DNA of 64,000 nucleotides from an uncultured delta proteobacterium (GCA_963808625.1 CAWEHK010000019.1:1-64000), one strand, 5' to 3'. Positions 25,850 through 49,084 are shown, counted from the stretch's first letter. Notes: generated by a model from the sequence alone, not told the origin. A program made the numbers and translations.

Positions 25850-25896
25850 AACAAATGCCTTCCTGGGTTGAACCTGCCGGATTTTCCGGCAGGCTT

Positions 25897-28214: not shown

Positions 28215-28350
28215 GAAGCTCTCCTCTTTGGTTTCCCTGCCTAAAGTGATCACTCGCCCTTAAGCGCTTGAAATCCCCCCAGTGGAATTTGGCAGGAGCT
28301 GCGCAAAAACAAAATACCTTCTTTCACCACATTCTATTCGCCGCTTGAGC

Positions 28351-28835: not shown

Positions 28836-28865
28836 CCTTCTTCCTTATTCTGATGATCTCCTAAG

Positions 28866-29275: not shown

Positions 29276-29285
29276 TGGTTCGATA

Positions 29286-29759
29286 TCATGACCTGTCGGC
29301 AGTATGGAAATTGGGATCATTGAGCAGTTCCTCCAGAATCCCGATGATCAGGTCTTCCAAGCTGTTGGGTAAATTCCTGAGCGTCTGTTGGCTGTCCGCA
29401 GCAGCTGGCGCTTCATAACCCAGTGCCAGCGGTTGCCTCTTGACCAGGCGTGCCGCATTCATCCCCAGGCGACGCAAGGGGGCGGGCTTGAGAGGCTCGA
29501 CTTTAATAGAAAGCAAGGGAGCCTCCGTCGGCAGATCGCGATGGTGAAGCACCACTTCGCCGCCCGCCCCTATGGCTATGCCAACATCCAGTGGCGAGCC
29601 ATTGGCGGCCTGTCCGGCAAGATCCCGAACCACTCCATCCGAGGTGTCCCGAACTTCGAAGGGAATGCCTTCTTCCTCGAGCCCCCAAAGGATTGGTTGA
29701 TAAGCTTCTTCTGCAACAAATGGGCTCCTGAAAATCCACACGGCGGGATGCCGATTCAT
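29286..29759 (-). CDS. pduH: Diol dehydratase reactivase beta subunit PduH
   Basis: ILWGLEEEGIPF, SPLDVGIAI, LHHRDLP, RRLGMNAARLVKRQP; ATGA overlap with the pduG end. Confidence 0.88.
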   Translation of the reverse strand: MNRHPAVWIFRSPFVAEEAYQPILWGLEEEGIPFEVRDTSDGVVRDLAGQAANGSPLDVGIAIGAGGEVVLHHRDLPTEAPLLSIKVEPLKPAPLRRLGMNAARLVKRQPLALGYEAPAAADSQQTLRNLPNSLEDLIIGILEELLNDPNFHTADRS

Positions 29760-31590: not shown

Positions 31591-31629
31591 AACGATCGGC
31601 TCCATCAGAACTCGCCCCAAGTTCGGCCT

Positions 31630-31692
31630 GTCATACCGGCGGAGGCCGGTATCCAGGTAATTTTCTGGATTCCGGTTTTCACCGGAATGACG
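31630..31692. repeat. Palindromic REP-like element (GTCATxCC family)
   Basis: gtcataccggcggaggccggtatccag...ctggattccggttttcaccggaatgac; similar to 7192-7254. Confidence 0.8.
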
Positions 31693-31738
31693 CGTTGAGA
31701 TTATGGCTGCTTGATTCTATGGTCGTTTAGTTAGTCCT

Positions 31739-31840
31739 GACCACTGATCACCAACCACTAACCACAAGCCACTGATCACCAACCACCCACCAACCACTAA
31801 CCACCAGCCACTAACCACTGACCACCGACCACTAACCACT
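31739..31840. repeat. Heptamer tandem repeat (ACCACTA/ACCACTG)n
   Basis: gaccactgatcaccaaccactaaccacaagccactgatcacc...accactaaccact; related tracts at 16520-16550 and 60598-60635. Confidence 0.85.
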
Positions 31841-32402
31841 ATTCCCGGCGCAGCCGACCGCGCTTTTCATAAACCTCCGCCGCCTCCCGCACCAAGGCGG
31901 CACAGATGTTGGCCTGGTAGCGTGACTCCAGCTCACTCGCAATATCAAGCAGTTCCTTCTTGGTGGATCGATAAGGTCTCAAGGCCTCGTAGATTTCGAG
32001 CACACGCTCATCGGAGATCCGCGTCAGTTCCGCCGCGCGGCGGATGTTGCTGGCCAACTGGGGCCGGCCGCAGGCATCAGCGATTTGGGCCTGATACTCG
32101 AGGGTCTCCGGGCGGATCTTCATGTCTTCGAAATTGATCTTACGGCTCGTAACCTTCTCCAGGGTTATGTCTTCAAGACTCAAACCGGTCGCCGTCTGCA
32201 CCAGGTCCGGTCGTTTCTGTGCCAACGGATAATCCTTTTTGGGATCAAGGCCGTTGCCTGCCGGGGCTCGTGGCTCTTTGGAACTCTCACTCAACGCGAC
32301 CACGACGCGCTTCACCGCTTCCTTGACAAGCTCGGGCGAAATGTTAACCCCTTTGGTCTGGGCCATGCGCTCTATCAGTCTTGATAATTGTTCATCGCTC
32401 AT
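31839..32402 (-). CDS. pduE: B12-dependent diol/glycerol dehydratase small subunit
   Basis: DYPLAQKRPD, DITLE, RPETLEYQAQIA, RRAAELT, YEALRPYRSTK, VREAAEVY. Confidence 0.95.
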   Translation of the reverse strand: MSDEQLSRLIERMAQTKGVNISPELVKEAVKRVVVALSESSKEPRAPAGNGLDPKKDYPLAQKRPDLVQTATGLSLEDITLEKVTSRKINFEDMKIRPETLEYQAQIADACGRPQLASNIRRAAELTRISDERVLEIYEALRPYRSTKKELLDIASELESRYQANICAALVREAAEVYEKRGRLRRE

Positions 32403-32465
32403 CGTCGACTATTCCTCCAGCAAATGGTCTGCCCATTCCTGAGCAAAGTGAAATCAGAGCCCATC

Positions 32466-33110
32466 TTAGAGTTGAACTCCGACTTCCTGGGTTGGCTTGT
32501 CCGGATTGACGTACTGGGTTTCCTTGTTGTGGAGCAAGGCCGCCAGACCCTGGTAACGGGGCCGCGCCATGGGGTCGTTGCGCACCGGCACCGGGCGGGG
32601 GCTTTCCCCTTTGGCATATTTTGCGGCATTGCGCCCCATGGCGCGAAAGGTTTCCAGATCCAGCAGCGGAGACTGTGAGAATAATTCCAAATTCTGGAGG
32701 GGTTTGAGGTCTTTCTGATGAATGACCGAAGTGCCTCGCGAGAGGATGCCGATCCCGATTCCCGAGCCACTGAGCTTGGCGGCCTCGTGAGAGATGAAAG
32801 CGACGTCCGCCGTGCGATAGACCTTGACCATACGCGCCTTAAGCCCTTGTTCTTCGATCCCGGCGACAATCTCCCGCAACACCTGCTGGTGGGGAATGCC
32901 GATAATGGTCTTATTCATCACGGTGCCAAAAGCGGGCGGCACCGCAATAACGACCTCATTCCGGTCGACGCCGGTCCGGGCGACTCCCATTTCTTTGAAC
33001 ACCAGCGGGGTTCCGTCTCCCTTGAACGAGGTGGCAGGCCGTTCCCCTGCCTCCATTTCCCGCAATACTTCAAGGATAATCTCCTTGACCATATCTTCCG
33101 TAATATTCAT
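32466..33110 (-). CDS. pduD: B12-dependent diol/glycerol dehydratase medium subunit
   Basis: EVVIAVPPAF, AGIEEQG, LSGSGIGIGI, VIHQKDL, NLELF, RNDPMARP; N-terminal encapsulation peptide. Confidence 0.95.
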   Translation of the reverse strand: MNITEDMVKEIILEVLREMEAGERPATSFKGDGTPLVFKEMGVARTGVDRNEVVIAVPPAFGTVMNKTIIGIPHQQVLREIVAGIEEQGLKARMVKVYRTADVAFISHEAAKLSGSGIGIGILSRGTSVIHQKDLKPLQNLELFSQSPLLDLETFRAMGRNAAKYAKGESPRPVPVRNDPMARPRYQGLAALLHNKETQYVNPDKPTQEVGVQL

Positions 33111-33135
33111 TGGTCTCTGCCTCCCTGACTCAGAC

Positions 33136-34803
33136 CTAAACGTCCTCGGGGCTGATGGCTTGCGGGATGTCCTTCAAGGTCTCCCACCGCTCACCTTCGA
33201 GACGATATCCGGTGCCGGGTCCCTGGTAATCGTTGAGGTCGTTAACCGCGCTCAAGACATCGAAATTGGCTTCCAGAATGGCTGAGGTATGGAGATAATC
33301 GCCGGAAATCTTTTGCTTGAGGATGCCCAGCACGGCTTCAGCCACATCACGGAATCCGTGCTTGACCAGCGCCCGGACCACATCGACTCCGTTGCCTCCG
33401 CGCTTCATGAAGTCTTCTATGGCGCGCAGATCTTCGGGCACATTGCGATCCGGTACATCCTTGCTGCCATGGGCATAGGTGACGGCTTCAACTTCCTCAT
33501 CGGTTATCGGCGGGAGCCCCACTTCTTTGAAAACAGCCTGCAAGGCTCGAGCGCCCTTGTTCCTGATCATGATGACATCCGCTTCGGTTACCGGGTGCAG
33601 ACCGCCATCAATCTGAAGGTCGCGCTGCAGGACCAGCCAGTCATCATAATCGTCGCAGTCGTGGGTGGACCCGGCAAACATGTTGTCATAATTGGGCACC
33701 GAGCTGTAGCCCGAGACAATCAGGTCCGTTCCCGGGAGAAATTGCATGAGCATCCGCGCCGTATTGCGAATGGGCGAATGGGTGAAGGTCTGGTCGTTGC
33801 CCGATGCCACTTCGAGGTCCATCAGGACGGTGGCGACATTTTCCGCAAGGACCGCGCGAATGCCCGAGGGAACGGCGCCAGGAACACCAATGCAACTGAT
33901 GGAACCATTTTGCACACCCTGGACTCCTGCTCCCTTGGCGATCATCACACACCGAACCTCCAGGTAAAGCATGGACTTACCTTCAGCGTAGCCCATTTGA
34001 ACCTCGGACCCGGTCCCTGAAGTGTAGCGCATCTTGAGGCCTCTCGAGGCGTAGGCTGAAGCCAGATAAGCTTTTGACCAGGGAGTGTCATCGCCATCCA
34101 CAAACACTTGTTCGGTACCGTAGACGGACACGGTTTCTGCATAGGACGTGAGTCCGCGCATGCCCATGCTGAGTTCGAGCGCTTCCTCGACGGCGCACTG
34201 GGTAATGACGCCGGGGCGTCCCGTTTGCGACCCTACCAGAATGGAAAGCGCGTTCATGGGAGCGTAGCGGCCCACCCCGACGGTGGTTTCTTCCTCACTG
34301 AAGCCGCGATACGCGGCTTCCGCGGCATCCGCCGCCAGGAGCGCGGGGTGGTCTTTCAGGTTGGTCACGTGGGCCTGATTGGAAGGGGTGCGTCGCGGTC
34401 GCAGCTTCTGCATGGCCATCATCAGCTCGACCACGTTCATCTTCTTCAGCACATCCAGGATCTTGGCCGGTGTCATGCCGACGGACAAACGCACGATGTC
34501 GGAGCGCGGCACGTTGATGTCCACAAGCATCCGCGCAAACTGAAGGGAATCCATGGCCATGGCCTTCTCGGCCACGGAAGTGTCGATGCAATGGTCGGCA
34601 ATCCATAAGTCGATCAAGTCGAACTTTTCGCGGGGTTTTCCGTCAAGTTCGACCACCTTACCGTTTTGGATCTTGATTCCAGGTGCTGGATCATTGGGGC
34701 TGTCCATGGCAACCAGGCCCACTTCAATCCACTCCTTGATAAAGCCGTCCTTGTTCACCGGACGCTGGGCCAGCACCTCGAAGCGTTTTTGTCTCTTACT
34801 CAT
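33136..34803 (-). CDS. pduC: B12-dependent diol/glycerol dehydratase large subunit
   Basis: KRFEVLAQRPVNKDGF, ADAAEAAYRGFSEEETT, TQCAVEEA, YAETVSVYGTE, DGDDTPWSK, YDNMFAGS, DYLHTSAI. Confidence 0.97.
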   Translation of the reverse strand: MSKRQKRFEVLAQRPVNKDGFIKEWIEVGLVAMDSPNDPAPGIKIQNGKVVELDGKPREKFDLIDLWIADHCIDTSVAEKAMAMDSLQFARMLVDINVPRSDIVRLSVGMTPAKILDVLKKMNVVELMMAMQKLRPRRTPSNQAHVTNLKDHPALLAADAAEAAYRGFSEEETTVGVGRYAPMNALSILVGSQTGRPGVITQCAVEEALELSMGMRGLTSYAETVSVYGTEQVFVDGDDTPWSKAYLASAYASRGLKMRYTSGTGSEVQMGYAEGKSMLYLEVRCVMIAKGAGVQGVQNGSISCIGVPGAVPSGIRAVLAENVATVLMDLEVASGNDQTFTHSPIRNTARMLMQFLPGTDLIVSGYSSVPNYDNMFAGSTHDCDDYDDWLVLQRDLQIDGGLHPVTEADVIMIRNKGARALQAVFKEVGLPPITDEEVEAVTYAHGSKDVPDRNVPEDLRAIEDFMKRGGNGVDVVRALVKHGFRDVAEAVLGILKQKISGDYLHTSAILEANFDVLSAVNDLNDYQGPGTGYRLEGERWETLKDIPQAISPEDV

Positions 34804-34820
34804 CGGCTGTCCCTTCTCGA

Positions 34821-35639
34821 TCAAATGTATGGTTGCGTGACGGGCTTAGCTTCCTGACCCCATGCACCAAGCAGCTTGATTCCTATTTCGCGGCCGGCAA
34901 TCACCGCCTGGCGAACGGCGCCCGAATCACCGGTCACCCAGATCATGACCTCGTTGGTGAGGCTGGTTCCCTTTGCCGGCGAAGCATATCCCACCACCTG
35001 GACATCCGCCGCCTTGACCGCGGTATCAATCATCAAGACGCCGATCACGGCAGGCGCTCCAAGAATCAGGCCGAAGGCTTTTCCTTCAGGGGTTTTGAAC
35101 AGGTAGTTCAAGCAGCGGCTGGCGCGCGCGCTGTACTGGAGCTCGAGATGTCCCTGGTCATTGGCATAGACGTCGCCAAAGTATTTTGGCAGGGCTTCGA
35201 GCGTCACCTCGACTGCGCGCCGGGCGTCCGATACGTCCTCAGCACCGAAGATGATTAAATTTCCGTGGCCGGCCCCGCCCTTGGTATCCCGGGGCATTTC
35301 CACGGCAAGAATCTCCGTGTTGGTCGCCTTCACGGCCTCATCCGCCGCCATGACCTGAGGACCCGCCCCGACCCGGCCGCCGATGACCCCGATGGAACGG
35401 AATTTATCGGGGATTCCCATGATGTCGTGAATGATGGGATCGAGATTGGCGATGACAATCCCCTGCGTCTCTCCCAAACCCACCCCAACAAACTCCGTTA
35501 CCTGAACCAGGTCAGGACGGGAAGGCGCCGGCCCGGGGTTGCCTCCCTCGGATGGTTTCGCGCTCGCTTTCCCGGCGGAAGCGGGACCTACTCTTTTCAT
35601 TACCTCTTGCAGGACTCTGTTGATCAGTTCCTCTTGCAT
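34821..35639 (-). CDS. pduB: BMC-T shell protein PduB
   Basis: TEFVG, GAGPQVMAADEAVKATN, PRDTKGGAGHG, DVSDARRAVE, GHLELQYSARA, GDSGAVRQA. Confidence 0.95.
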   Translation of the reverse strand: MQEELINRVLQEVMKRVGPASAGKASAKPSEGGNPGPAPSRPDLVQVTEFVGVGLGETQGIVIANLDPIIHDIMGIPDKFRSIGVIGGRVGAGPQVMAADEAVKATNTEILAVEMPRDTKGGAGHGNLIIFGAEDVSDARRAVEVTLEALPKYFGDVYANDQGHLELQYSARASRCLNYLFKTPEGKAFGLILGAPAVIGVLMIDTAVKAADVQVVGYASPAKGTSLTNEVMIWVTGDSGAVRQAVIAGREIGIKLLGAWGQEAKPVTQPYI

Positions 35640-35690
35640 CGGATGGTACCTCCCGGCTTTGTGCAGTTATGGATAGGGCCCGAAATCGAG

Positions 35691-35978
35691 CTATTCGTTA
35701 ACCTGGAGTTGCGGCAAGATCTTTTCAACATCCTGGTGTGGCCTGGGGATCACATGGACCGAGATCACTTCGCCCACCTTCTGGGCGGCGGCGGCACCGG
35801 CGTCCGTGGCGGCCTTCACCGCGCCCACATCGCCCCTCACCATCGTGGTGACAAGGCCTGCGCCGATCTTGACATACCCGACCAATTGGACGTTGGCGGC
35901 CTTTACCATGGCATCCGATGCTTCGATCATGGCGACCAGCCCTTTAGTTTCGATCAATCCCAATGCTTCTTTCACCAT
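35691..35978 (-). CDS. pduA: BMC-H shell protein PduA
   Basis: [49 protein letters not shown]. Confidence 0.95.
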
Positions 35979-36370
35979 TTTCAATCCTCCCAATCCGGCT
36001 GAAATAACATTCTGCGAACCGTGGCAGTCTCCTGCCGCTAATCACGATTCGTCCCGTTAAGCCTGGTCTCAGGCAACAACTTCTTTCTTCCCAAATTTGA
36101 ACAATTTTAAGGATCCGGCAGCCGATCCGGGTGGGCGTAAAGCCCGCCCCCACGAGAGGCTGTCCAATCCGCTCAGTAGCGGCGGGGTTTATCCCCGCCC
36201 GCAAGGAATTGGGGATTCTCTCATCCCCATGCAATGCAATCGCTCAATTTGGGTTCTTATCAGCAGCTCGGGCAGTCTCGCGGAAAGCATTCCAGCAACT
36301 GTGCCCTCCGCATGCAATGAGGTATTACAAGGTACGGCGCTGCCCGTGGCAGTTTGCCGCAACGCCATGC

Positions 36371-37477
36371 CTAAGCCCCGCCCTGGTAGTCTTTGGCCAA
36401 AGCGTCCGCCGTCCAGATTGCCGCCTCAACCATGTCCGCGGTTACGTCAAACCAGGTGGCATGAATGGTTTCGCCCGGGGCCGTGGTGGCTTCGGCCACC
36501 TGGCGGATTTCTTCCCGCGAGGGATTGTGGATGCCCAAATCATCCAAACAAACAGGTAATCCCACGGTCAGGCAAAAATCCAACACCTCATAGATTTCAT
36601 CGGAAGAGCGGCCTTCCATAACCAACTGGGTGAGGGTGCCGAAGGCCACTTTTTGGCCGTGAAGTTTGTGATGCGAACTCTCCAGGACGGTAAACCCATT
36701 ATGCACGGAGTGGGCGCCGGCAAGGCCTCCGCTTTCGAAGCCCAAACCGCTCAACAGAGTGTTGGCCTCCACAATAGCCTCGACGGCCGGCGTCACACAC
36801 TGCTTTTCCACTGCCAATTTGGCCTGGAGGCCGTATTCCAGCAAGGTATCGTAGCAAAGGCGGGCTAACGTTGTCGCGGAACGGGTGGGAGGAAATCCTC
36901 CGGTGAGCACGTTGGGCTTGCAGCTCTTGGCACAGGTGTCCGCCTCCCAGAAGGTGGCGAGAGCATCCCCCATACCGGAAACCAAGGTTTCCACAGGAGC
37001 GTTGGCGATGATGCGGGTGTCGACGAGCACGCAGTCCGGGTTGTGAGGCAAAACCAGGTAGCGTGCAAACACGCCGGCATCGGTGTAAACCACCGACAGA
37101 GCGGAGCAGGGAGCGTCCGTTGCGGCGATGGTCGGGACCACAATCACCGGGATTTTCATGAGGTGGGCTACCGCCTTGCCGGTGTCGATGACCTTGCCGC
37201 CCCCGGCGGCAATGATGAAATCAGCGCCCTCCTTGCGGGCGATGTCCACCAGGCGATTGATTTCATTGTCCGAGCATTCCCCGTTGAAATGTTCCTGGAA
37301 ACAGCCGAGGTCTTTCTCCTTGAGGCTGGCTTGAATCGACTCGGCACAGGCGGCCAGGGCTCGCTTGCCTCCGGTCAGCAAGGCCTTGGTGCCAAGCCTC
37401 GCTGCGTGCAAGCCGATTTCGTTGATGGCTCCCTGTCCTTGAACATAACGACTTGGTGCAATTAGGATCCGACTCAT
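36371..37477 (-). CDS. gldA: Glycerol dehydrogenase GldA
   Basis: PSRYVQG, FNGECS, GGGKVIDTGKA, PTIAATDAPCSALSVVY, SGMGDALAT.WEA, EANTLLSGLGFESGGLAGAHSVHNG, HGQKVAFG. Confidence 0.95.
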   Translation of the reverse strand: MSRILIAPSRYVQGQGAINEIGLHAARLGTKALLTGGKRALAACAESIQASLKEKDLGCFQEHFNGECSDNEINRLVDIARKEGADFIIAAGGGKVIDTGKAVAHLMKIPVIVVPTIAATDAPCSALSVVYTDAGVFARYLVLPHNPDCVLVDTRIIANAPVETLVSGMGDALATFWEADTCAKSCKPNVLTGGFPPTRSATTLARLCYDTLLEYGLQAKLAVEKQCVTPAVEAIVEANTLLSGLGFESGGLAGAHSVHNGFTVLESSHHKLHGQKVAFGTLTQLVMEGRSSDEIYEVLDFCLTVGLPVCLDDLGIHNPSREEIRQVAEATTAPGETIHATWFDVTADMVEAAIWTADALAKDYQGGA

Positions 37478-37819: not shown

Positions 37820-38638
37820 CTAAACGCGGTAATGGAGCTCGCTTTTAAGAGGCAGGCCCACCGCCAGCTTTGCCGCAGCATCCTCGATGCGCTTGCGTTC
37901 GGTGGGACTGCGGACAATGCCGCGGAGCACGATATGCTCGCCATCATAGGCGACATCGAGGGTGGTAGCCTGGAGGGACGGATTCACGCAAAGGCCTGCC
38001 TTGATCTTAGCGGCCGCAGCACGCATCTGAACCAGTTTTCTGGTTTCCTCGCTACCGAAACGATCTTTTTCCATGAGAATCGCCTTGACCCGATCGGTTG
38101 CCTCTTCGATGGTCTGGATTCCCATATCGAGAATGAGGTCATATTCTTCAAAGTTCTCCCAATGCTTGCTGTACAGGGAACGAATGAAGCACGACCGCTC
38201 CCCGTCCTTCTTTTCGAGCAGCCATTGGGCGGTTTTTCGGTCCACCGCATCCCTTTGCATCACGTTTTCGATCCGCAATTCCAGGGGTCCAACCACATGA
38301 ATCGTGAGCACGTGGGGAATGCCTTTCAAGAGGAAGTTCGCTCCCATGCCGATGATCACCACCCGGTCATCCGCCGCATAATTCAGGACCGCACTCTGCA
38401 GCAGGGCGCCAAAACCTCTGAAGGACCAGTCATACTTTTCCCAGATCGTGGGGCAATGTTCATCCAAGCCCTTGCCCCATTCTTCCCATTTTTCGCCGGC
38501 CGCGCGGATATCATTCAGAATTCGTTCGCGATCAAAGTAAGCATAGCCCAAATCGTCGGCGACTCTTCGGCCGATCTCCCGGCCGCCGCTTCCAAACTGT
38601 CTCGATACGGTCAAAATGGCCATGTTTCCCTCATGCAC
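37820..38638 (-). CDS. Cytidylate-kinase-like family protein with C-terminal BON-like domain
   Basis: ILTVSRQFGSGGREIG P-loop variant; YDLILD; C-terminal LDVAYDGEHIVLRGIV...IEDAA. Confidence 0.8.
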   Translation of the reverse strand: MHEGNMAILTVSRQFGSGGREIGRRVADDLGYAYFDRERILNDIRAAGEKWEEWGKGLDEHCPTIWEKYDWSFRGFGALLQSAVLNYAADDRVVIIGMGANFLLKGIPHVLTIHVVGPLELRIENVMQRDAVDRKTAQWLLEKKDGERSCFIRSLYSKHWENFEEYDLILDMGIQTIEEATDRVKAILMEKDRFGSEETRKLVQMRAAAAKIKAGLCVNPSLQATTLDVAYDGEHIVLRGIVRSPTERKRIEDAAAKLAVGLPLKSELHYRV

Positions 38639-39392
38639 TCTTATCCGGTTCAGGATCAGGAGGAAGCCCCACTTCGCTCGCCGGGCGTTTTGCCCTCTCG
38701 GAACTGATCATCCACTTCATCCAGAGTTTGCCAACAATGATCACGCCGACGGCTAGGACGGCTTCCACCGTGTATTGCACTATCTTTGAAGGAGCCAGGA
38801 AATCGACCACCACCGGATCCGTCATGATCATCTCGCCGCCGACTCTTCCCAAGACCGCGGCCCCCACGTAAATGATGATCGGGTATCGATCCATGAGCAG
38901 CGAAAGGAGGTTGCTCGTGAAAACCACCAGGGGAATGCTCAAGCCCAGCCCGAAGAGCAGCAGGAACAGGTTGCCGTGAGAAGCACCGGCCACCGCCAGC
39001 ATATTGTCAATGGACATGGTGATATCTGCAATCACAATGATTTTGATGGCCTGGGCGATGGTCGTGGCTTCCCGTTCGATCCCTTCCTCCGGCACGCCCT
39101 CAATGAAAAGCTTTACGGCTATCCAGAGAATCACTAAACCGCCAACCAGCTTGATGAAGTTGATCAGCAACAACTGCGAGACGAAAAACGTAGCAAAGAC
39201 TCTGAGTAAGACCGCCGCCGCCGCTCCGAAAATAATCCCTTTGGTTCGCTGCTCGGAGGGCAGCGACCTCACCGCCATGGCGATAATCACAGCATTGTCT
39301 CCGGCCAGAATCAGATCGATAATGACGATGCTAAGAAGGCTGGAAAAAAACTCCCAGTTCAGATGAATCGTCCCAAACCACCCCAGGTCCAA
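38631..39392 (-). CDS. TerC-family (YjbE-type) membrane protein
   Basis: IDLILAGDNAVIIAMAVRSLP, IADITMSIDNMLAVAGAS, FGLGLSIPL; TTG start after a GGAG RBS. Confidence 0.92.
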   Translation of the reverse strand: MDLGWFGTIHLNWEFFSSLLSIVIIDLILAGDNAVIIAMAVRSLPSEQRTKGIIFGAAAAVLLRVFATFFVSQLLLINFIKLVGGLVILWIAVKLFIEGVPEEGIEREATTIAQAIKIIVIADITMSIDNMLAVAGASHGNLFLLLFGLGLSIPLVVFTSNLLSLLMDRYPIIIYVGAAVLGRVGGEMIMTDPVVVDFLAPSKIVQYTVEAVLAVGVIIVGKLWMKWMISSERAKRPASEVGLPPDPEPDKSA

Positions 39393-39679: not shown

Positions 39680-40257
39680 TCAAGCGAAAACCTGTTCGGC
39701 GAGGTCCCGCCGCAGCCGCTGGGATTCCTTCTCAATGGCGGCGATGATGTCGGCGGCGCCCTCGGCGGCGGCCAACTTCGGTTTGATCGCCGCGTAGAAC
39801 GCTTCTTCCACCCTGTACAGTCGGTTCAGGGTCAGCAGGTAGTTGGTGCGGGTGTGATAGGCGTTGCGCACAAGGGTCTCATAGTTGTCACCCTCGACCG
39901 CCAGCAAGTCCCGGTAATGGTCGACCAGGACGTTCATCCAGGCGGCATAGGGCTTTTCGAGTTCATCCGCGAGTCCGTATTGATGGACCGTCTGGTTCAC
40001 CTCTGTCCGGTGGTCCGATTCAAGGACCGCGATCGCGAACTCCAACGCTCGCCGCCGGGTGACCATGAAGTCTTCGTCGAATTTCATCCGGCCGGTCTTG
40101 TACTTCTGCATCGGTGGATGAAGTGGAGGAACAGCAACGGCACCAGCACCATCCAGAAACTCACCCGGGGCTTCTCGAACACGGCCGCACCAACGGCATT
40201 GGCAAACGCCAGCTCCCGCGCCAGGATGAGTTCCTTCTTTTTGTCCAAGTCCTTCAT
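39680..40257 (-). CDS. Hypothetical protein with one hydrophobic segment (frameshift near 40113)
   Basis: MKDLDKKKELILARELAFANAVGAAVFEKPRVSFWMVLVPLLFLHFI from ATG 40257 joins ORF 39680-40111. Confidence 0.7.
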
Positions 40258-40293: not shown

Positions 40294-40584
40294 TCACTTC
40301 CCGCTGCCCGGCATGTAGTCGAGGCTGTCGCGGATGCGTTCCGATCCCTCGGCCGGTTCCTCGAAGTCCGTGTAGTAAATGGCGGTGGCCCTCAGGCCGC
40401 GTTCGTCGATCACCTGCGCCATGTGCCTGGCACCGGGCACATGGCGGGCCAGCGACCCGACCCCGAAGATCAGCGCCCAGATCATCACGAACCCGATGAT
40501 CAGCTTCAGCCAGGGGCCAAAACCTGTCTGCGGGGTTGAGGCCCCGCAGACAGTGCTGTCAGCGAAGGTGCAATTTGTGGTCAT
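40294..40584 (-). CDS. Small single-pass membrane hypothetical protein
   Basis: TM segment WLKLIIGFVMIWALIFGVG, then AIYYTD; a diverged copy at 39440-39555 supports coding. Confidence 0.75.
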   Translation of the reverse strand: MTTNCTFADSTVCGASTPQTGFGPWLKLIIGFVMIWALIFGVGSLARHVPGARHMAQVIDERGLRATAIYYTDFEEPAEGSERIRDSLDYMPGSGK

Positions 40585-40587
40585 GCC

Positions 40588-40860
40588 CTTGGGAACCGTC
40601 CAAAAACGAATGGCACTCATTTCAGCCCTTTTGCGAACCACGAAAAACACAAAGAGTACGAAGAAATCACTTCATGTTCTTCATGGTAAAAGAAGGCCAT
40701 CTATTTTTTTGGGCCGCCCCCTTATTACTATAACGAGGTTTCCGCAGGGGGCATTAATCTGTGGGGCAGGCTTTCCAGCCTGCCTTCTGCCCAGTCCGGC
40801 ATGGCAGGCTGAAAAGCCTGCCCCACGCGGCTTGGACCTTCTTCAAAGTATCCTTGCAGC
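40588..40860. repeat. Two stacked repeat elements (copies of the 7291-7422 and 1987-2120 elements)
   Basis: 40588-40722 aligns with 7291-7422; 40727-40860 aligns with 1987-2120. Confidence 0.85.
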
Positions 40861-40861: not shown

Positions 40862-42619
40862 TTAGATGCCGGCCGTGACCTCCGGGAAGATAAGGTAGAA
40901 CATGATATAGCCGATCAGCAGGGTGAAGCAGAGCTGAAAGGTCTGCCCGAAGACGTAGAGAGTAATGGGCTTGCCGCCCTTGAAGTAATGGCCGAACTCT
41001 CTGAAATCGGTCTCGAGGCCGATGCAGGTGAACGCCAGGGCGAAGAACCATTCACGCGCAATGCGTGTGAAGCCCCGGAGAACGCCGTGGTCGATCATCA
41101 CGGTGCTCATATCGCTGCCCACGCTCTGGTCGATGATGGAAAAAACGATCGAGGCGATGATGAAGCCGATAACGAACTTCGGGAAGCGGTACCAGATTTC
41201 CCACCAGCTCACGGTTTGACCCGGAGCGCATTCCACTCTGGCGCACCAGTACACGGCCACGCCGAAAGCCACGACACCGATCAGCACGTTCTGGATCATC
41301 TTGATCGTTGCCGCTACGTAGAGGGCCTTTTGACCCAAAAAGGCGCCGGCCGCAGCCACGGCGCCAGTCGAATCGATGGTGCTGCCCATCCAGGCTCCGG
41401 CCAGGATCTCCGGCATTCCTACCAGCTTGGCGAACGCCGGCTGGCCCACCATGCAGATCGCCGTGAAGACCATGGAAAGCCCAATGGCCAGCGTCAGCTC
41501 CTCTTTTTTGGCCCGGCAGGCCGCGGCGGTGGCGATGGCCGCCGAGACGCCGCAGACCGACATATCGGCCGAAATGGTGATGTTCAGGGTCTTGGAAGGC
41601 ATTTTGACGATCTTCTGGCCGAACCAGTAGGTCAGGATCAGGGTGATCGGGGTGCAAATCCAGGCGATAAAGATGCCCGGTTTGCCGATGGCTAAAATCT
41701 TGTTGAAAAGGATTTCGGCACCGAGCAGAACGAGCCCGGTCTTGATGTAGAATTCGGTGCAGACCGCGGGCTGCATCCATTTGGGGGTGCCGACCGTGTT
41801 GCTGATGAGGAGGCCGAAGGCGATGGCCCACAGCGGAAAGCCGAAGCCCCAGTATTTCATCAGGGCCTGGGTTTCGGCCATGTAGGCCAATATCGCAATA
41901 ATGAAGACCGCCGGGAAGGCGATGACGAACCGGCTGAACGGGGTGCCCATGATGGCCTTGCCGATGCCGAAGAACACGGCCAGGATGATGCACAACCCGA
42001 TCAGATAGGGTATTCGGTTATAGGGTTTGACATTGAACTTGCTGTCGGCTTTGGAGAAGGCGTCCTTAGCTTTCTGCCAGGCGTTGATCTCCTTCTCGGC
42101 TGCGGCGTTGAGATTTGGGTCCTTGAAGCCTGCTGCTGCAGCGGCGGCCTGAGCGGTCTTGGCGCTTGCCAGCGCGGCTTCGGCAGCGGCCTTGGCTTTG
42201 TCCGCCGCCTCTTTAAAGGGCGCGCCCATGGCCTTGGCGGTTTCCTCGCTGCGGTAGAGGGCGTCTACCGGGTTGGTGTCCCAGTCACTGGGCGCGGCCA
42301 GGAAGTTCTGAATGGTCTTGGCGAAATCCTGGTTGGTTGCCCGAACTCCGCGTTTGGCTGATGACGCATTATACCACTCGATCGTTTTGAAGGGCGCCTT
42401 GGCGGCCTCTTCCTTCATCGTCGCATTGTACTTGGGGATTTCGGCCGCTTTCTCCGGCGGTCGCGGCAGGTAGATGACCAGCCCGATGATGAGAAGCAAA
42501 AACCCCATCCAGACAGCCATCCAGTCTTCTTTCTTGTAAAGATCCTTAAGCGAGGTCTTGCCGCTTTCTATAACTACATAATCCGGTTCCGCTGGCGACG
42601 GTGTTTTGGTTTCTGCCAT
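40862..42619 (-). CDS. YeiH/putative sulfate exporter (PSE) family transporter with large Ala-rich loop
   Basis: KEDWMAVWMG, EFYIKTGLVLLGAE, SVCGVSAAIA, GAWMGSTIDSTGAV, KMIQN, FPKFVIGF, LAFTCIGL; AAGGAGGT RBS. Confidence 0.9.
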   Translation of the reverse strand: MAETKTPSPAEPDYVVIESGKTSLKDLYKKEDWMAVWMGFLLLIIGLVIYLPRPPEKAAEIPKYNATMKEEAAKAPFKTIEWYNASSAKRGVRATNQDFAKTIQNFLAAPSDWDTNPVDALYRSEETAKAMGAPFKEAADKAKAAAEAALASAKTAQAAAAAAGFKDPNLNAAAEKEINAWQKAKDAFSKADSKFNVKPYNRIPYLIGLCIILAVFFGIGKAIMGTPFSRFVIAFPAVFIIAILAYMAETQALMKYWGFGFPLWAIAFGLLISNTVGTPKWMQPAVCTEFYIKTGLVLLGAEILFNKILAIGKPGIFIAWICTPITLILTYWFGQKIVKMPSKTLNITISADMSVCGVSAAIATAAACRAKKEELTLAIGLSMVFTAICMVGQPAFAKLVGMPEILAGAWMGSTIDSTGAVAAAGAFLGQKALYVAATIKMIQNVLIGVVAFGVAVYWCARVECAPGQTVSWWEIWYRFPKFVIGFIIASIVFSIIDQSVGSDMSTVMIDHGVLRGFTRIAREWFFALAFTCIGLETDFREFGHYFKGGKPITLYVFGQTFQLCFTLLIGYIMFYLIFPEVTAGI

Positions 42620-42997: not shown

Positions 42998-44044
42998 TCA
43001 CCGCTCGAATCTCTTGACGCAGGTAAGACAGGATTGATTCGGGTTTCCAATGGCCAGTCCTTCTCGAAACTGTCGGAACGCCTCACTCTCCCAGATCGCC
43101 AGCGGGTCCAGGGTGAGGACATTGCCGAAGATGCGGCGCCTGGGATCTGGCCCGGCGGCTGGCAGTTTGAGATAGACACATGGGGATGCGGAACCGTCAG
43201 CGGCCACGAAAAGCGAACGGGCGATGTTTTCACGACAGCTCATACCGGATGCGCTCGGGTCCGGCAGGCTCCAGTGGCATTCCATACCCAGGCGTCGAAT
43301 TTCGGATGCCGTTTCCTGAAGAATGGAAGCCGCTGCCGCCAGCTTCCCGGGTTCATCGAGGCCGAAACCCTCGGGCTTCAATTCAGCGCTCGGAACATAG
43401 TCGAGGGTGCTGATCACCGCCGCGTGCACGCCGAGGCGCTGCATCAGGGCCGGCAGACCGCGCACCGCTTCCATGTTCGAGGCCAGCATCAGGTAGGCGA
43501 GATGAATCTCCAGGTGCACTCCCTGGCGTGCGCGCCGGACGGCCTGGAGGAGGGATATTGCTTCACCTACCCTCTCGAAGTCTACTCCCTGACGGGAGGC
43601 GTTGGTTGCCGCACTGGTGCCGGCCAGCGAGAAGGCAATGATATCCAGACCGCTTTCCACGATCTGCAGGGCCAGGTGTTCGTTCATGATCAGGCCGCAG
43701 GTGGTGGTGGACACGGCACTCCCGGTCTTGAGCGCCAGCGCGGCCATCTCGAAGAAGGCGGGATTGAGCAGCGGTTCTCCCCAACCCTGGAGATGCACGC
43801 GGCTTGAACGCCGCATCAAGGGCCAGAGGCGGGCGAAGGTTGCCATGTCCATGTCTCGCCCCGGCCACTGCTCGTGCATGATCGTGTGGGGACAATAGCG
43901 GCAGCGGCCGGGACAGCGGGTCGAGACCTCCACCTGGAGGCAGTCCAGGAGGCGCCGAACCCCGAAAAGGCGTTCGCGAAGAGTCTCCCAGATCCCCGGT
44001 TCGCGGAATGATCGCTCGGAGGTTTTGTCCGATACTCGCTTCAT
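42998..44044 (-). CDS. Radical SAM protein with SPASM/twitch domain
   Basis: QVEVSTRCPGRCRYC, LQGWGEPLL, CRENIARSLFVAADGSASPCVY, FGNV...IWES, CLTC. Confidence 0.9.
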   Translation of the reverse strand: MKRVSDKTSERSFREPGIWETLRERLFGVRRLLDCLQVEVSTRCPGRCRYCPHTIMHEQWPGRDMDMATFARLWPLMRRSSRVHLQGWGEPLLNPAFFEMAALALKTGSAVSTTTCGLIMNEHLALQIVESGLDIIAFSLAGTSAATNASRQGVDFERVGEAISLLQAVRRARQGVHLEIHLAYLMLASNMEAVRGLPALMQRLGVHAAVISTLDYVPSAELKPEGFGLDEPGKLAAAASILQETASEIRRLGMECHWSLPDPSASGMSCRENIARSLFVAADGSASPCVYLKLPAAGPDPRRRIFGNVLTLDPLAIWESEAFRQFREGLAIGNPNQSCLTCVKRFER

Positions 44045-44057
44045 AACGAACTCACCG

Positions 44058-44138
44058 TGTCACCCCCGCATGCTTTTGGCGAGGGTCCAGGGACATAACA
44101 GTTGACCTGGATTCCCGCCAAAAGCATGCGGGTTGACG
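44058..44138. repeat. Palindromic REP-like element (GTCAxxCCCGC family)
   Basis: gtcacccccgcatgcttttggcg...tccag...ctggattcccgccaaaagcatgcgggttgac. Confidence 0.8.
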
Positions 44139-44181
44139 CCTGGTAACGGTGGCCCTCTACTCCTTCACCCTGAATTAAGTT

Positions 44182-45026
44182 TCAGCGACCGAAAATGCTG
44201 GAGAGCCTTTGCAGCAGTCCCGGCCGAGCCGGTGCCCAGCTTACCTCCACATACGGGAGGAAAGGAAGCGCTCCCCATTTACGTTTGAAGAAACCAACTC
44301 CGGTATTGATGCCCAGCCCAAGGTTCATGAGAGTCTGCCCGCGTTGATAAGCCTCTTCCAGAAGTCCCCCAAGCAGGAGATCGGTGCTGCCCGGTGGAGC
44401 CAGCCGGGGGTCCCGGAAGCAGAACATGAAGAAAGCGGTCCGGAAGGCACTGAAATCACCCACGACAAAAGCGGCCAGCTTGCCGTCGGCGAGTCGCCCG
44501 GAAAGCACCAGGCTGCCGGGAGAGGCCGCGAGGTAGTGGGGCAGATGCTGAAAAACGTGTCGCGTTCCTGGCTCCAGATGGCGCTCGTCGAGGTAGCGCT
44601 GGACCAGCGCCAGGTGATCATCGCCCCATTGGTGTCCCCTCTCGACGGTCAGCTCCCGACTCGCCCGGCGAATAAGGTTGCGCACCTTCTGGAGGAGGTA
44701 GAGGATGCGGCACCGGCAGGGAATAATAGCAGTCCTCGGTAACCTGGCTCTCCGCCCGGGCCTGGGGCGGTCTGGCCGGTCCGATGACGGTGAGATACGC
44801 AGGTCTCTAATTTTGAGCGCTTCACTGACAGCCTCGGCCATGGCTTCCGTATCCCGAGGGTCATGCAAAGGATAACCTACCAGCACCAGCTTCTTCTCCG
44901 AGGCAAAACCCACACAGTCTCCCACCAGCTCGGCTCTGTTCCCGAGACGGTACGAACGTACGGCAGAAGTTGTTCGGGGACCACCGCCTCAGCGGTTACT
45001 CGAGCCAGGAGATCCGGGCCGATCAT
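44182..45026 (-). CDS. GNAT/FemAB-like protein, paralog of the N-terminal domain of 45023-46714 (frameshifted)
   Basis: MIGPDLLARVTAEAVVPEQ, LVGYPL, VRNLIRRA, TDLLL, NLGLGINTGVGFFKRKWG; ATGA overlap with the upstream gene. Confidence 0.75.
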
Positions 45027-46714
45027 TTCGCCCTCCTGACCGTGAAGCCCGCCTGACTCAGCATGGGACGCAGATCGAGCAGGTGTGCCGATCCCACCAG
45101 TACCGCACAACGGCCCCGTTCCAGAAATGGGCGCATCCGTTCGAGGAAGACGGCGTCGCGGCGATTGATGACCCATTCGGTGCGGGTGGGAAACTCGATG
45201 CTGGTGCCCATCATGCGCTCCAGGTTCCCTCTCAGGTAGGCGCGTTCATTGCGTTTCAAATACCCGTGCCAGCGGGGGCACTGGCGAAAGAAATTGATAA
45301 TGCGGGGGATCGGGATGCTCTCGAGGGTCTCGAGCTGCTCGGCGATGGTCTCCATGCCCCGCACCGTCTTTCCCATCTCCCTAGCCAGGTGCCACGCCTC
45401 AAGATCTACCGAATAACGCCAGTCATGACGTGCCAGAAAGCTGGTCCAGAGCGAAAAAAAGGCCATCCAGGGGCGGGTTTCGGCGAGAAAATGACGCACA
45501 TCCGGCGCGTTGGGAGTACTGAATCCCAGCAGCCGCGCCCAAAAACCCTGTGGTCCACATACCACTCGCTCCAGACGACGGATCTCCTCCTCCGTCAGCA
45601 GTTCGATGAGCCGGGGGCTTCCTGCGGCTGGGCTTCGCCCCACCTCCGCCACTCGGTCAAGGCTCGCCTGATCGAGCGGCCCTTCGAAGAGAACCGTATC
45701 CACCCGTTCAAAGAGTTCGCGAAAGGAGGTTTCGAAGCTGCAGCAAAAGAAGTGCGCCGTTCCGCCAAGCCAGGAACGACTCTCGTCTTTTTCGACTTCC
45801 CAGAGCATGGCGAAGTGTCGCTGCGGGGGGAGGCTGGCCAGAAACTCCCGCTTGGACATGGCTTCACCGGGCATGGCGCGCAACGCCCGCATGAACTCGT
45901 TCATCTCGGTACGGGCCTTAGCTTTTGCCTCCCAGGCCGCCATTTCATAGGGTAGCGATGGAGTCCCTCCCCACTTGGTCTTGAAGCGACGAATGCCATC
46001 GTTAACGCCGAGACCGAGATGCAGAAAATCCTTCTGCTCTCTTCTCGCCAGCTCGATCATTTTCAGAAAGAGCAGATCGGAAGCGTGAGGGGTATAATGG
46101 ATACGGGAGTGAGCCCCGAGGAGATAGGTTAAAAAACAGCCGGGAGCCGTGTCCAGCAGCAGGCAGGCGGCGAGATGACCGCGCTCGTCCCAGGCATCGA
46201 GGAAGACCAGACCAGGAGCCCGGGAGATCACATGGTCGGTGCGCGCGTAGAGCTCGCGGACGTTAGGCGGCAGGGGCACGCGAGCCAGGAATTCGGCCCA
46301 AAGGCGGCGGTGCGCCGGGGTGAACTGCGCGCCCTCTTCCACTTGGAGCGAGGTCGCGGCCTGGGCCGCCTGGCGTTCAAGACGGGACGGTACAGGTATA
46401 TCAGAAGGGAGGGTATAGTAGAAATCCTGATTAGTGCGGTAGTGCTGCAGGCGACTGGGAAGGGAGGGGCTGATCGCCCAACACCTCGTGGCCCGTGTCC
46501 GGGATAAGGCTTCGGCCAAGGCTTCGTCAAAACTTAGCGATGAATCATCTCCCGAGAGCGGATAGCCTACCGCCAGCAGCCAGTCCTTGGCAGCAACAAA
46601 AAGGTAGGGACCCAGGAGGAAGGCCGAACCGTCCGACATGGCCTCCATAAAGGCCACGGAATGTTCGGGTACCGTCGCCTTTGCCAGGACGGCATTTATC
46701 TCGGAAGGATTCAT
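45023..46714 (-). CDS. Fusion of a GNAT/FemAB-like domain and a TraB/GumN (TIKI metallopeptidase-like) domain
   Basis: N-half: ATVPEH, AVGYPL, ASDLLF, LHLGLGVNDGIRRFKTKWG. C-half: MLWEVEK...SWLGGTAH, VLFE, GMETIAEQL, INRRD, VLVGSAHL. Confidence 0.8.
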   Translation of the reverse strand: MNPSEINAVLAKATVPEHSVAFMEAMSDGSAFLLGPYLFVAAKDWLLAVGYPLSGDDSSLSFDEALAEALSRTRATRCWAISPSLPSRLQHYRTNQDFYYTLPSDIPVPSRLERQAAQAATSLQVEEGAQFTPAHRRLWAEFLARVPLPPNVRELYARTDHVISRAPGLVFLDAWDERGHLAACLLLDTAPGCFLTYLLGAHSRIHYTPHASDLLFLKMIELARREQKDFLHLGLGVNDGIRRFKTKWGGTPSLPYEMAAWEAKAKARTEMNEFMRALRAMPGEAMSKREFLASLPPQRHFAMLWEVEKDESRSWLGGTAHFFCCSFETSFRELFERVDTVLFEGPLDQASLDRVAEVGRSPAAGSPRLIELLTEEEIRRLERVVCGPQGFWARLLGFSTPNAPDVRHFLAETRPWMAFFSLWTSFLARHDWRYSVDLEAWHLAREMGKTVRGMETIAEQLETLESIPIPRIINFFRQCPRWHGYLKRNERAYLRGNLERMMGTSIEFPTRTEWVINRRDAVFLERMRPFLERGRCAVLVGSAHLLDLRPMLSQAGFTVRRAK

Positions 46715-46856: not shown

Positions 46857-49084
46857 ATGACGCAAGCGCTTGACCATTACTCGGAATGAAGTGCTGTTTG
46901 GAGCCGACGCAACCTCGGGGATAGTGGCCGTAGAGCAGGTTTCCGGGAATCGAATGCGGCTTTTCAGGCGCGGGACGGATGGCCTGGTGCAGGAAGACGA
47001 GGCCTTCCGGCCCTTTATGGTATTGGAAAAAGAAGGGCTTCTCGATGGCTTCAGGAAGCCCTTTACAGGCCACGCGCTCAGTTCCACCAATGCCTTTAAG
47101 TTCCTGGCTCTATTTGAGAATTGGGGAGATTGCGAGAGCGCCCGAGACCACCTGCGCAAGACCAGCGGGGAATCAGCCTCCTCCCCGACGGCACCCTACC
47201 TCTATCTGGCCGATCCCGTGCATCAGCACCTGCTGCTCACCGGCAAGACCCTCTTCAAGGGCCTGGCGTTCAAGGATATCCATCGTCTCGCCCTCGATAT
47301 CGAAACCGCTTGTGCGCCGGGGTTTGAGTTTTCAAACCCTCAGAGAGAAGAGGATCGCATCCTCTCCATTGCCCTGATGGACAATCGGGGGTTCGCGGAA
47401 GTGCTGTTCGGCGGGGATATGACGGAAAAAGAGATGCTCCAGGCTTTGGGCGAGAGGATCATGGCCCTCGACCCGGACGTCCTGGAAGGGCACAACCTCT
47501 TCAATTTTGATCTCGAATATATCGTTGCCCGGGCCAGGATGCATGGCGTTAAACTGCCCTGGGGACGCAACGGCAGTGAGCCCAGGATTCGTAAATCCCG
47601 CTTTACGGTAGCCGAGCGCATCATTGATTTTACCCGCATGGACATCTTCGGCCGGCATGTCGTGGATACCATGTTTCTGCTGCAATATTACGATGTCACG
47701 GCCCGCGAGCTGGAGAGCTACGGGTTGAAATCCGCCGCGCTTCACTTCGGCCTGGCCGATGAGGACCGGACTTATATCGATGGGGACAGGATTCAATGGG
47801 CTTATGAGCATGATCCGGAAGCCCTCAAGCGCTACAACCTGGATGATGTGAGGGAAACCCTGGCGCTCTCCGAGCTTCTCGGGTATCCGTTTTTCCTGCA
47901 AGCGCAAATCTTCCCCTTTTCCTACCAGAATATTTTCGTGCGGGGCAATGCGACCAAGATCAACGCGCTGTTCCTGCGGGAGTATCTCAGGAGGCGGGCT
48001 TCCATCCCCAAGCCCATGGCCAGGGGAGATTTTGAAGGAGGCTACACGGATGTCTTTGTCGAGGGCGTGGTGAAGAACGTGGTGCACTGCGACGTCGCAT
48101 CACTTTACCCCTCGATCATGCTCTCTTTCAGCCTGAAGCCGGCAGGGGACAGCCTGGACATCTTCCTGCCCCTCCTCCGGGATTTGCGCGCCTTCCGCCT
48201 GGAAGCCAAGAGAAAAGGCCCATGAGGTCGCCTCACCCCACGATCGGGACTATTACCAGGCACTCCAGCAGACCTTCAAGATCCTCATCAATTCCTTCTA
48301 CGGTTACCTCGGGACGGCGCTGCATCATTTTTCCGATCCCGGTTTGGCGGCCGAAGTCACCCGCCTGGGACGGGAGCTTATCCGCAAGATGCTGGCGTGG
48401 CTGGAAGAAGAGGGGGCGACGCCGGTCGAGATCGACACCGACGGGATTTACTTTGTGCCGCCTCCCGGCGTGGTCACCGAAGAGCAGGCCGGGGCGCTGG
48501 TTGCGCGGCTTTCCCAGAGCCTTCCGGAAGGCATCGAGGTGGAGATGGATGGGCGCTATGTCTCGATGTTCTCGTATAAGAAGAAAAACTACGCGCTGCT
48601 CGATGCGTCGGGAAACGTCACCATAAGAGGAAGCGGACTTCGTTCAAGGGGAATGGAAAAATACCTGCGGGAATTTCTTGCAGCCATGATTCGCCTGCTG
48701 CTCGAAGGGAGAGGAGAGGAAGTCAGTCAGCTCTACAAGGGCTTCGACGAGCGCCTGAAACAGCACCAGATGGACATTGCCTTGCTGGCAAAAACGGAGA
48801 CCCTTACCGAAACTCCTGAGAACTATCAACTAAAAATCAAAGCCAAGAAGCGCAACCGGGCGGCGGCTTACGAGCTTGCCTTGAGCTCGGGACGAGATTT
48901 CCGCGCCGGCGATCAGGTCTCCTATTACGTGACCGGCAGCGACAAGAAAGTGCGCGTTTTTGAAAACTGCAAATTCGCTTCCAGCTACGATCCGACTCAA
49001 CCGGATGAAAATATCGCCTATTATCAGGCCAAATTGCTTGAGCTGGTGAAGAAATTCCAGGATTTCCTGCCCCGGATGCCTTAG
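46857..49084 (+). CDS. polB: Family B DNA polymerase with 3'-5' exonuclease (frameshift near 48220, probably another near the start)
   Basis: ExoI DIET, ExoII GHNLFNFD, ExoIII YNLDD; motif A DVASLYPS, motif B KILINSFYGYLG (about 48278-48313), motif C IDTDG. Confidence 0.92.

Follow-up and report, generated by a model that had tools for sequence, protein, structure and literature searches.

What would two transferase-like proteins, a TraB/TIKI domain and a radical enzyme do together in one organism? This question is raised by a three-gene cassette at positions 42998..46714 of a 64,000-nucleotide stretch of DNA from an uncultured delta proteobacterium (GCA_963808625.1 CAWEHK010000019.1:1-64000; the whole stretch is called the window below). 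Gene 1 encodes a fusion of a GNAT domain (GNAT-A) with a TraB/GumN domain of the TIKI superfamily, gene 2 a second GNAT protein (GNAT-B), and gene 3 a radical S-adenosylmethionine (radical SAM) enzyme. A first-pass annotation of the sequence had proposed the trio as an undescribed modification system. The cassette is a real and uncharacterised system, each domain of which comes from a known superfamily; it is conserved as two separable modules, and it is linked to a YeiH-type transporter and to dsrA. The explanation that we tentatively put first is an accessory small-molecule pathway of sulfite-respiring anaerobes (organisms with dissimilatory sulfite reduction, Dsr), in which a metabolite would be tailored by aminoacyl-tRNA-dependent enzymes.

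Conservation of the cassette and its two modules

The three genes were all found on the minus strand where the first-pass annotation had placed them (Table 1), and its ATGA overlap can be read directly from the sequence, the TGA of gene 1 occupying 45025-45023 and the ATG of gene 2 45026-45024. The paralogy of the two GNATs likewise stands: VPE, GYPL, DLL and LGLG.N.G...FK.KWG are present in both, the N-terminal half of gene 1 and gene 2 each give a weak Acetyltransf_6 match in Pfam, and hhalign aligns the two across 266 columns with a probability of 99.9 and 26% identity. GNAT-B is an ancient paralog of GNAT-A. In the window, the frame of gene 2 from its ATG ends after 49 codons and is not a single open frame. 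Compared with four close relatives, three single-base indels are located near 44928, 44808 and 44691-44693, and the gene is intact in relatives. These indels are probably assembly errors, because 4 of 11 genes of the same genome are frame-broken likewise when tested against same-genus relatives (a fifth apparent break is a fusion in the relative and was left uncounted). In addition, contigs of public runs carry the frame-keeping form at all three sites, at the low depth of 1-3 contigs per site; the idea that gene 2 is a pseudogene was accordingly set aside as the less likely one.

Relatives of the fusion protein make up 549 of the 8000 scored candidates; identities of 65-85%, spanning almost the full length, are seen for the top 120. 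The locus set consists of 78 distinct loci obtained from the best 80 of 93 genome-scan matches. Gene 2 directly follows gene 1 in 68 of the 72 loci with room for it and is absent from 4 (a further 6 run off a contig edge), and in 49 of the 66 loci that leave space for it the radical SAM gene comes next after gene 2, which bears out the co-conservation of the trio in other genomes. The way in which the block breaks up is informative. GNAT-B and the radical SAM enzyme form a single open reading frame (ORF) in 5 loci, two of which belong to sister taxa, 4 loci encode GNAT and TraB separately, and a split form of four genes (GNAT-A, TraB, GNAT-B, radical SAM) is often met with in other families. 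Where the block has come apart, GNAT-A remains with TraB and GNAT-B usually with the radical SAM gene, the exception being family f30, where GNAT-B remains with GNAT-A and the radical SAM gene adjoins YeiH. The pairing of GNAT-B with the radical SAM gene is seen with three different radical SAM clades. The trio is composed of two separable modules, [GNAT-A + TraB] and [GNAT-B + radical SAM].

The first-pass annotation had reported no precursor peptide, and none emerged here: among 809 small ORFs (20-90 aa) within 1.2 kb of the cassette, none recurs in more than 4 of the 72 loci. Cultured carriers include D. piger ATCC 29098, B. wadsworthia ATCC 49260 and Desulfobulbus alkaliphilus DSM 24258. 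Two single loci deserve description. In locus L219 (genome G374), a 48-codon remnant of GNAT-B at 3763-3909 stands before an intact radical SAM gene and beside a YeiH-like gene, which suggests from its sequence that the GNAT add-on was lost and the core kept. In the Desulfovibrio piger locus L084, a glycyl radical enzyme, its activase and TauE-family exporters lie at 4708-9775, directly upstream of the cassette; this glycyl radical enzyme scores below all NCBIfam cut-offs.

Predicted activities of the encoded proteins

The AlphaFold2 model of gene 1 (predicted local distance difference test score, pLDDT, 80.7) contains two domains joined by a disordered linker. The top structural matches of residues 1-270 are all aminoacyl-tRNA transferases, namely FemX, Sbb17/Sba18 and aminoacyl-phosphatidylglycerol (aaPG) synthases, at Z 16-19. 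The VIA match to FemX (6snr) has Z 19.4 and a root-mean-square deviation of 3.8 over 264 aligned residues, that to Sbb17 (9wqx) has Z 19.2, and aaPG-synthase domains give Z 16-18; acyl-CoA tandem GNATs rank lower (Z <=15). The Fem-type identity that the first-pass annotation had read from a C-terminal motif thus reappears at the level of the fold. The double-GNAT fold was compared by structure for GNAT-A and assigned by homology (hhalign) for GNAT-B. The G.xxFKxKW motif occurs in 30/30, 58/59 and 32/33 rows of three GNAT alignments, the first being that of GNAT-A, and a CoA-type motif is rare in the same alignments (0/30, 1/59 and 6/33 rows). A basic helix is also kept, with a median of 4-5 Lys and Arg residues and a net charge of +2 to +4. 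Lys305 of FemX and Phe328/Lys329 of DhpH represent the F-K pair arrangement described in PMC12945691, and the F-K pair and basic helix of the GNATs fit it, the equivalence being one of motif rather than of residue overlay. Because of the FemX-type fold, the F-K motif, the basic helix and the rarity of the CoA-type motif, GNAT-A and GNAT-B are predicted to be aminoacyl-tRNA-dependent transferases.

At the sequence level these proteins stand apart. A PDB sequence search with the fusion protein and the GNAT profile gave no match, LPG_synthase_C weakly matches 9 of 59 GNAT members, and the ESM Atlas returned unnamed clusters together with weak GNAT/LPG-synthase leads. The A-type GNATs form a clade of their own, apart from the B-type rows (Shimodaira-Hasegawa-like approximate likelihood ratio test, SH-aLRT, 100), in a quick tree that, like that of the radical SAM enzymes, was drawn from the midpoint and is read for its groups rather than for an order of events.

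The C-terminal domain of gene 1 is matched at residues 303-561 by PF01963 (TraB/GumN) with 110.3 bits against a cut-off of 26.8, over model positions 1-263 of 263. Among 33 aligned sequences, H321 and H544 are each kept in 31 and E344, E455 and R519 each in 32, the set that also includes D520 being kept in 30-32; we take these residues to match those of Tiki's own numbering. The active-site motifs are present in 62-68 of 68 fused proteins. At the sequence level, both the TraB/TIKI identity given by the first-pass annotation and the ligand check that it called for therefore came out in its favour, since two His, two Glu and one basic residue, the pattern of the TIKI family (PMC6254334), are retained in 31-32 of the 33 sequences. 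The superfamily includes esterases and endopeptidases, with metal-dependent and metal-independent members (PMC6254334). Structural searches were less telling for this half of the protein: the fold-search lists for the gene 1 model were filled entirely by GNAT-domain matches, the TraB domain folded alone without an alignment reached a pLDDT of 36, and a PDB sequence search with this domain returned noise only. A transmembrane segment was found in none of the proteins of genes 1-3 (maximum 19-residue Kyte-Doolittle hydropathy, KD19, of 1.66 in gene 1). Based on the Pfam match and the retained residues, the domain is predicted to be a soluble hydrolase.

Gene 3 matches the Radical_SAM and SPASM Pfams and contains CxxxCxxC (C44/C48/C51) as well as exactly four conserved auxiliary cysteines, C270, C289, C339 and C342, which are invariant in 20/20 diverse rows. 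Where a SPASM domain holds two clusters, a Twitch domain holds one; the single auxiliary cluster of BtrN has four Cys ligands (PMC9012708). Because four, and not seven or more, auxiliary cysteines are conserved, gene 3 is classed by its residues as a single-cluster Twitch/BtrN-type enzyme and not a two-cluster SPASM enzyme. Consequently, the CxxxCxxC of the first-pass annotation holds, but its SPASM-type cysteine set does not. The nearest solved sequences are PqqE, BtrN and BlsE (E 1e-19 to 4e-17), PqqE being the top match by a small margin. Against TIGR04317 (W_rSAM_matur) and TIGR04311 (rSAM_Geo_metal), gene 3 scores 105.9 and 110.6 bits, so that the cut-offs of 380 and 400 are not reached, and its relatives score <=157 bits. 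Only about 30 residues precede the radical SAM core. A co-fold of GNAT-B with the radical SAM enzyme, both from locus L040 and with alignments, gave a score of 0.01 (mark 0.32) and is weighed neither for nor against an interaction.

A sister clade of this enzyme is fused to a classical short-chain dehydrogenase/reductase (SDR) with catalytic Y..K, and 120/120 listed matches cover at least 95% of the fusion. The SDR-radical SAM fusion of about 628 aa (L148 625-2553 and relatives) is abundant in sediment metagenomes, where it is annotated just as SDR. A second radical SAM gene of the same family lies in the window itself at 17252-18452 (+); it is a member of the clade found together with the four-gene split cassette, and it is an orphan, frame-broken just past its start. 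In locus L201 (G441), at 5575-11664, a radical SAM gene of the family is part of an operon for arsenic resistance, where acr3 stands on one side of it and an Acr3-like fragment on the other, together with arsC, thioredoxins and an ArsP-like permease; ArsP-like permeases adjoin the radical SAM gene in three more genomes. An arsenic role was rejected, as few genomes show this context and the ArsS match has an E of only 0.003. A role as tungsten/aldehyde ferredoxin oxidoreductase (AOR) maturase, considered from the likeness to TIGR04317 and from AOR genes near 3 of 20 loci, was rejected as a minority context with scores far under the cut-off. Anti-phage defence was likewise discarded: PADLOC gave only generic rSAM-viperin matches of 26-62 bits, and none for the GNATs, TraB or NF038143.

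The wider gene system and its association with dsrA

The distribution of the cassette was followed across 400 evenly sampled Desulfobacterota genomes. The TraB subfamily is carried by 36 of them (cassette genomes; one match is weak and probably decayed). The GNAT family is present in 36/36 cassette genomes, 33 of them with at least two matches, versus 0/38 genomes with YeiH only. The radical SAM family is found in 34/36 cassette genomes versus 55/364 others, and the YeiH subfamily in 28/36 versus 38/364. The radical SAM gene lies <=3.5 kb from YeiH in 23 of the 48 genomes with both, and 14 of these 23 have no GNAT/TraB genes. Since the pair recurs without these genes, radical SAM and YeiH make up a wider and presumably older core, and GNAT/TraB are an add-on found almost only alongside that radical SAM enzyme.

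The NF038143 (HYxxLL) family is a further partner, often in two to three copies adjoining YeiH and GNAT-B; it is present in 7 of the 36 cassette genomes. Among 80 metagenome loci of the SDR-radical SAM clade, many on short contigs, GNAT occurs in 40, NF038143 in 43, YeiH in 23 and TraB in 3, and a frequent order is YeiH, NF038143, NF038143, GNAT-B, SDR-radical SAM. A small hydrophobic protein accompanies YeiH in 8 loci and in further YeiH loci. In the window, the promoter scan placed a promoter-like site at 42984-42956, between gene 3 and YeiH, and because of this site YeiH is suggested to have its own transcript.

The association with dsrA extends over both the cassette and the core. With related genomes counted separately, dsrA is present in 33/36 cassette genomes (28/29 of the high-quality ones) and in 46/55 genomes with the radical SAM family only, five of the nine misses being borderline radical SAM matches. 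By comparison, it is present in 25/80 genomes without TraB, radical SAM and YeiH matches, these 80 being the first ones without all three markers and not the full set. In genus g38, dsrA occurs in the one cassette genome and in none of three cassette-free genomes. Outside the phylum, dsrA is present in each of the two Chloroflexota and three Spirochaetota carriers, one of these matches being partial. In the genome of the window, dsrA is on another contig. YeiH lies 2-13 kb from dsrA in seven cassette genomes. In G448, a genome of the Chloroflexota, the series dsrA, B, dsrD-like, C, M and K has a YeiH-like gene directly before it, and farther on, still on that strand, the radical SAM gene comes after a DsrN-like amidase; in G103 the radical SAM gene comes after dsrJOP.

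In two surveys of Dsr (PMC10504309, PMC10591310), the main text uses none of the terms radical SAM, YeiH, acetyltransferase and TraB. For D. vulgaris DVU0543, a transporter of the PSE type, a phenotype involving molybdate is described (PMC10102598). Drive of sulfite resistance is reported for Salmonella YeiH (10.1101/2025.07.27.662810). The window transporter, a member of the YeiH/PSE family, belongs to a long subfamily. To this subfamily Salmonella YeiH, a member of the same Pfam family, is presumably only distantly related.

Beyond this set, a TerC/YjbE gene overlaps a cytidylate-kinase-like/BON gene at 37820-39392 (-) of the window, and the same pair adjoins YeiH and the radical SAM gene in family f15 (L189, L193, L199), so that the pair is possibly part of the broader regulon. 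At 46870-49084 (+), a gene for a family B DNA polymerase is divergent from gene 1, split by a frameshift near 48222 and syntenic in the genus. By ORF reading, a Pdu-type microcompartment cluster occupies 22675-37477 (-), with diol dehydratase subunits, reactivase, shell proteins and PduO/PduP/EutJ-like genes, and contains a Pfam-checked glycerol-dehydrogenase-like gene; at 18530-22101 (+), a fragmented gene for a subtilase-like protease comes before one of metallo-beta-lactamase fold.

Table 1. Positions of the cassette genes, their domains and the linked downstream genes in the window
Feature	Position	Strand	Remarks
Gene 1	46714-45023	minus	563 aa; GNAT-A N-terminal half and TraB/GumN C-terminal half
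GNAT-A, gene 1 residues 1-263	45926..46714	minus	FemX/aaPG-synthase-like double-GNAT; predicted aminoacyl-tRNA-dependent transferase
TraB/GumN (TIKI) domain, gene 1 residues ~296-563	45023..45829	minus	predicted soluble hydrolase
Gene 2, GNAT-B	44182..45026	minus	GNAT-A paralog; three single-base indels in this assembly
Gene 3, radical SAM	42998..44044	minus	348 aa; C44/C48/C51 and auxiliary C270, C289, C339, C342
YeiH/PSE-family transporter, long subfamily	40862..42619	minus	PF03601, 145 bits
Small hydrophobic protein after YeiH	40294..40650	minus	maximum KD19 2.42; ~97 aa in relatives
NF038143 (HYxxLL) family protein	39680..40242	minus	frame-broken into two pieces in the window

Proposed function and comparison with known systems

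In the small-molecule pathway that we tentatively favour, the radical SAM enzyme, with SDR in some lineages, would oxidise, rearrange or epimerise a polar, non-peptide substrate; because of the SDR fusion in the sister clade, dehydrogenation of an alcohol may be its reaction, by analogy. GNAT-B and GNAT-A would load amino acids from aminoacyl-tRNA onto this substrate, and the TIKI hydrolase would take one amino acid off again, with activation, editing or recycling as the purpose. Substrate or product would be carried across the membrane by the YeiH-type transporter. For this scheme we infer the tRNA donor, the bond attacked by the hydrolase, the order of the steps and one common molecule. A bolder version, which we consider possible rather than probable, is an undescribed branch of dissimilatory sulfur metabolism: the radical SAM/SDR enzyme and the two tRNA-dependent transferases would make a sulfur carrier or a scavenger of sulfite that bears amino acids, or would further modify the siroheme/DsrC machinery, with the TIKI domain recycling and YeiH moving the compound.

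Several observations weigh against the small-molecule pathway. The presence of the radical SAM family in 55 genomes without GNAT/TraB genes means that the sharing of one substrate is not required, and 17 of the 66 loci with room have no adjacent radical SAM gene. The flanking genes of the cassette are otherwise highly variable, and genes that would build a scaffold (synthases of sugars, nucleosides or cyclitols) are not co-conserved with it. The radical SAM enzyme comes closest to NCBIfam models described as putative metalloenzyme maturases, and this speaks for a protein or a cofactor as the target; its family adjoins arsenic and metal transporters in some genomes. As for the tie to sulfite respiration, the dsrA-positive genomes without the system show that it is dispensable for Dsr, the separate counting of related genomes overstates the co-occurrence, most fused-type loci do not adjoin dsr genes, and no dsrA match was found in carrier G458 (3-kb contig, outside the phylum sample).

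Some of these points lead to the main rival, the maturation of Dsr proteins or cofactors, which we rate as unlikely. Here DsrAB, DsrC, siroheme(amide) or the NF038143 proteins would be what the radical SAM enzyme and the transferases act on, with the TIKI domain as a peptidase or editing hydrolase. The likeness to TIGR04311/TIGR04317 fits this idea, as does the radical SAM gene directly after the DsrN-like amidase in G448 and after dsrJOP in G103; the two to three NF038143 paralogs stand beside GNAT-B and the radical SAM gene as targets might, and endopeptidases occur among TIKI enzymes (PMC6254334). On the other hand, the SDR fusion and the solute transporter better suit a diffusible small molecule, NF038143 is confined to a minority of cassette genomes, and many dsrA genomes do without the whole system, whereas DsrN is described as nearly universal in Dsr organisms (PMC10504309). 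Quite unlikely is an aminoacylation and de-aminoacylation of membrane lipids in the style of MprF/aaPG synthase plus hydrolase, in which the synthases would be soluble and YeiH would be their partner in the membrane. The Z scores of the aaPG-synthase domains and the weak LPG_synthase_C matches point towards it, and synthase and hydrolase pairs are familiar for aminoacyl lipids. However, FemX and Sbb17 score equally high or higher, genes 1-3 bring neither flippase nor membrane anchor, and the radical SAM enzyme, the SDR and the dsrA tie would be left unexplained.

It is decidedly unlikely that two unrelated functions, [GNAT-A + TraB + GNAT-B] and [radical SAM + YeiH], are merely co-located in the same anaerobes. 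The radical SAM and YeiH genes do occur without GNATs in many genomes, and the GNAT-TraB-GNAT block occurs without an adjacent radical SAM gene; but the single-ORF fusions of GNAT-B with the radical SAM enzyme, the persistence of this pair when the block splits, its recurrence across three radical SAM clades and the near-universal presence of the radical SAM family in cassette genomes all speak for a functional link. The peptide pathway offered by the first-pass annotation fared worst. A peptide made by the ribosome and modified after translation (RiPP) whose precursor is encoded elsewhere, extended by the transferases, modified by the radical SAM enzyme and released by the TIKI domain, is highly improbable. 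PqqE as the top solved-sequence match and the TraB peptidases and SPASM enzymes of some graspetide loci (PMC8939145) are compatible with it, but no small ORF recurs near the cassette, the BtrN-like enzyme has cysteines for a single auxiliary cluster and no space for a precursor-binding domain in the ~30 residues before its core, and the sister clade is fused to SDR.

The first-pass annotation knew of no pathway with this composition, and literature searches, with most subscription journals and supplements outside their scope, gave none either. To our knowledge, no aminoacyl-tRNA-dependent chemistry has earlier been tied to sulfite respiration. The cassette possibly counts for more if it is part of Dsr biochemistry. 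Dissimilatory sulfite reduction is central and much studied, yet a multi-enzyme system that tracks dsrA in three phyla goes unmentioned in the main text of the two surveys. If the small-molecule pathway is correct, three families so far uncharacterised (the soluble TraB/TIKI subfamily, the Fem-like transferase pair and the BtrN-like radical SAM family with its YeiH transporter) would gain a function together, and it would extend tRNA-dependent chemistry beyond cell walls, lipids and antibiotics to anaerobic sulfur metabolism. Carriers are as far apart as wetland syntrophs and two bacteria of the gut, Bilophila wadsworthia and Desulfovibrio piger, and because cultured carriers exist, the system is directly testable.

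Among known systems, the FemABX/GNAT-fold aminoacyl-tRNA transferases (FemX, DhpH-C/DhpK, VlmA, PacB, Orf11, Sbb17/Sba18) have in common with the cassette GNATs the double-GNAT fold (Z 19), the basic helix of domain 2 and the F-K pair near the C-terminus. The dehydrophos pathway likewise employs two such transferases, and Streptomyces clusters combine tRNA-dependent GNAT transferases with tailoring enzymes (PMC12945691). In contrast to this group, the GNATs of the window are only 10-16% identical to its members, lack a sequence-level PDB match, are fused to or adjoin a TIKI hydrolase in Dsr anaerobes, and have no peptidoglycan or antibiotic scaffold genes near them. The aaPG synthases (MprF C-domain, DUF2156) have the same fold as GNAT-A and are paired with hydrolases, but the known aaPG hydrolases are of the alpha/beta type and not TIKI; the cassette has a TIKI-type hydrolase, two paralogs and a radical SAM enzyme, and no flippase.

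Similarly, gene 3 shares CxxxCxxC and four auxiliary cysteines with BtrN/BlsE-type Twitch enzymes, its cluster binding being predicted, and differs from the putative metalloenzyme maturases of TIGR04317/TIGR04311, at about a quarter of whose cut-offs it scores, as a distinct YeiH- and dsrA-linked family. Like the Dsr accessory genes dsrN, dsrD, dsrL and dsrT, the cassette co-occurs with dsrA and sometimes lies in or beside the dsr cluster; unlike the core Dsr genes, it is not universal in Dsr organisms, as the 25 dsrA-positive genomes without the system illustrate. Finally, the C-terminal domain of gene 1 has the full-length PF01963 match and the two His, two Glu and basic residue of the TIKI/TraB/PrgY superfamily (Tiki, TraB/GumN, Ere esterases, RRSP). 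Tiki carries an RN motif where the TraB domain of gene 1 has RD, and the domain described here is soluble, free of an anchor and always tied to GNAT-A.

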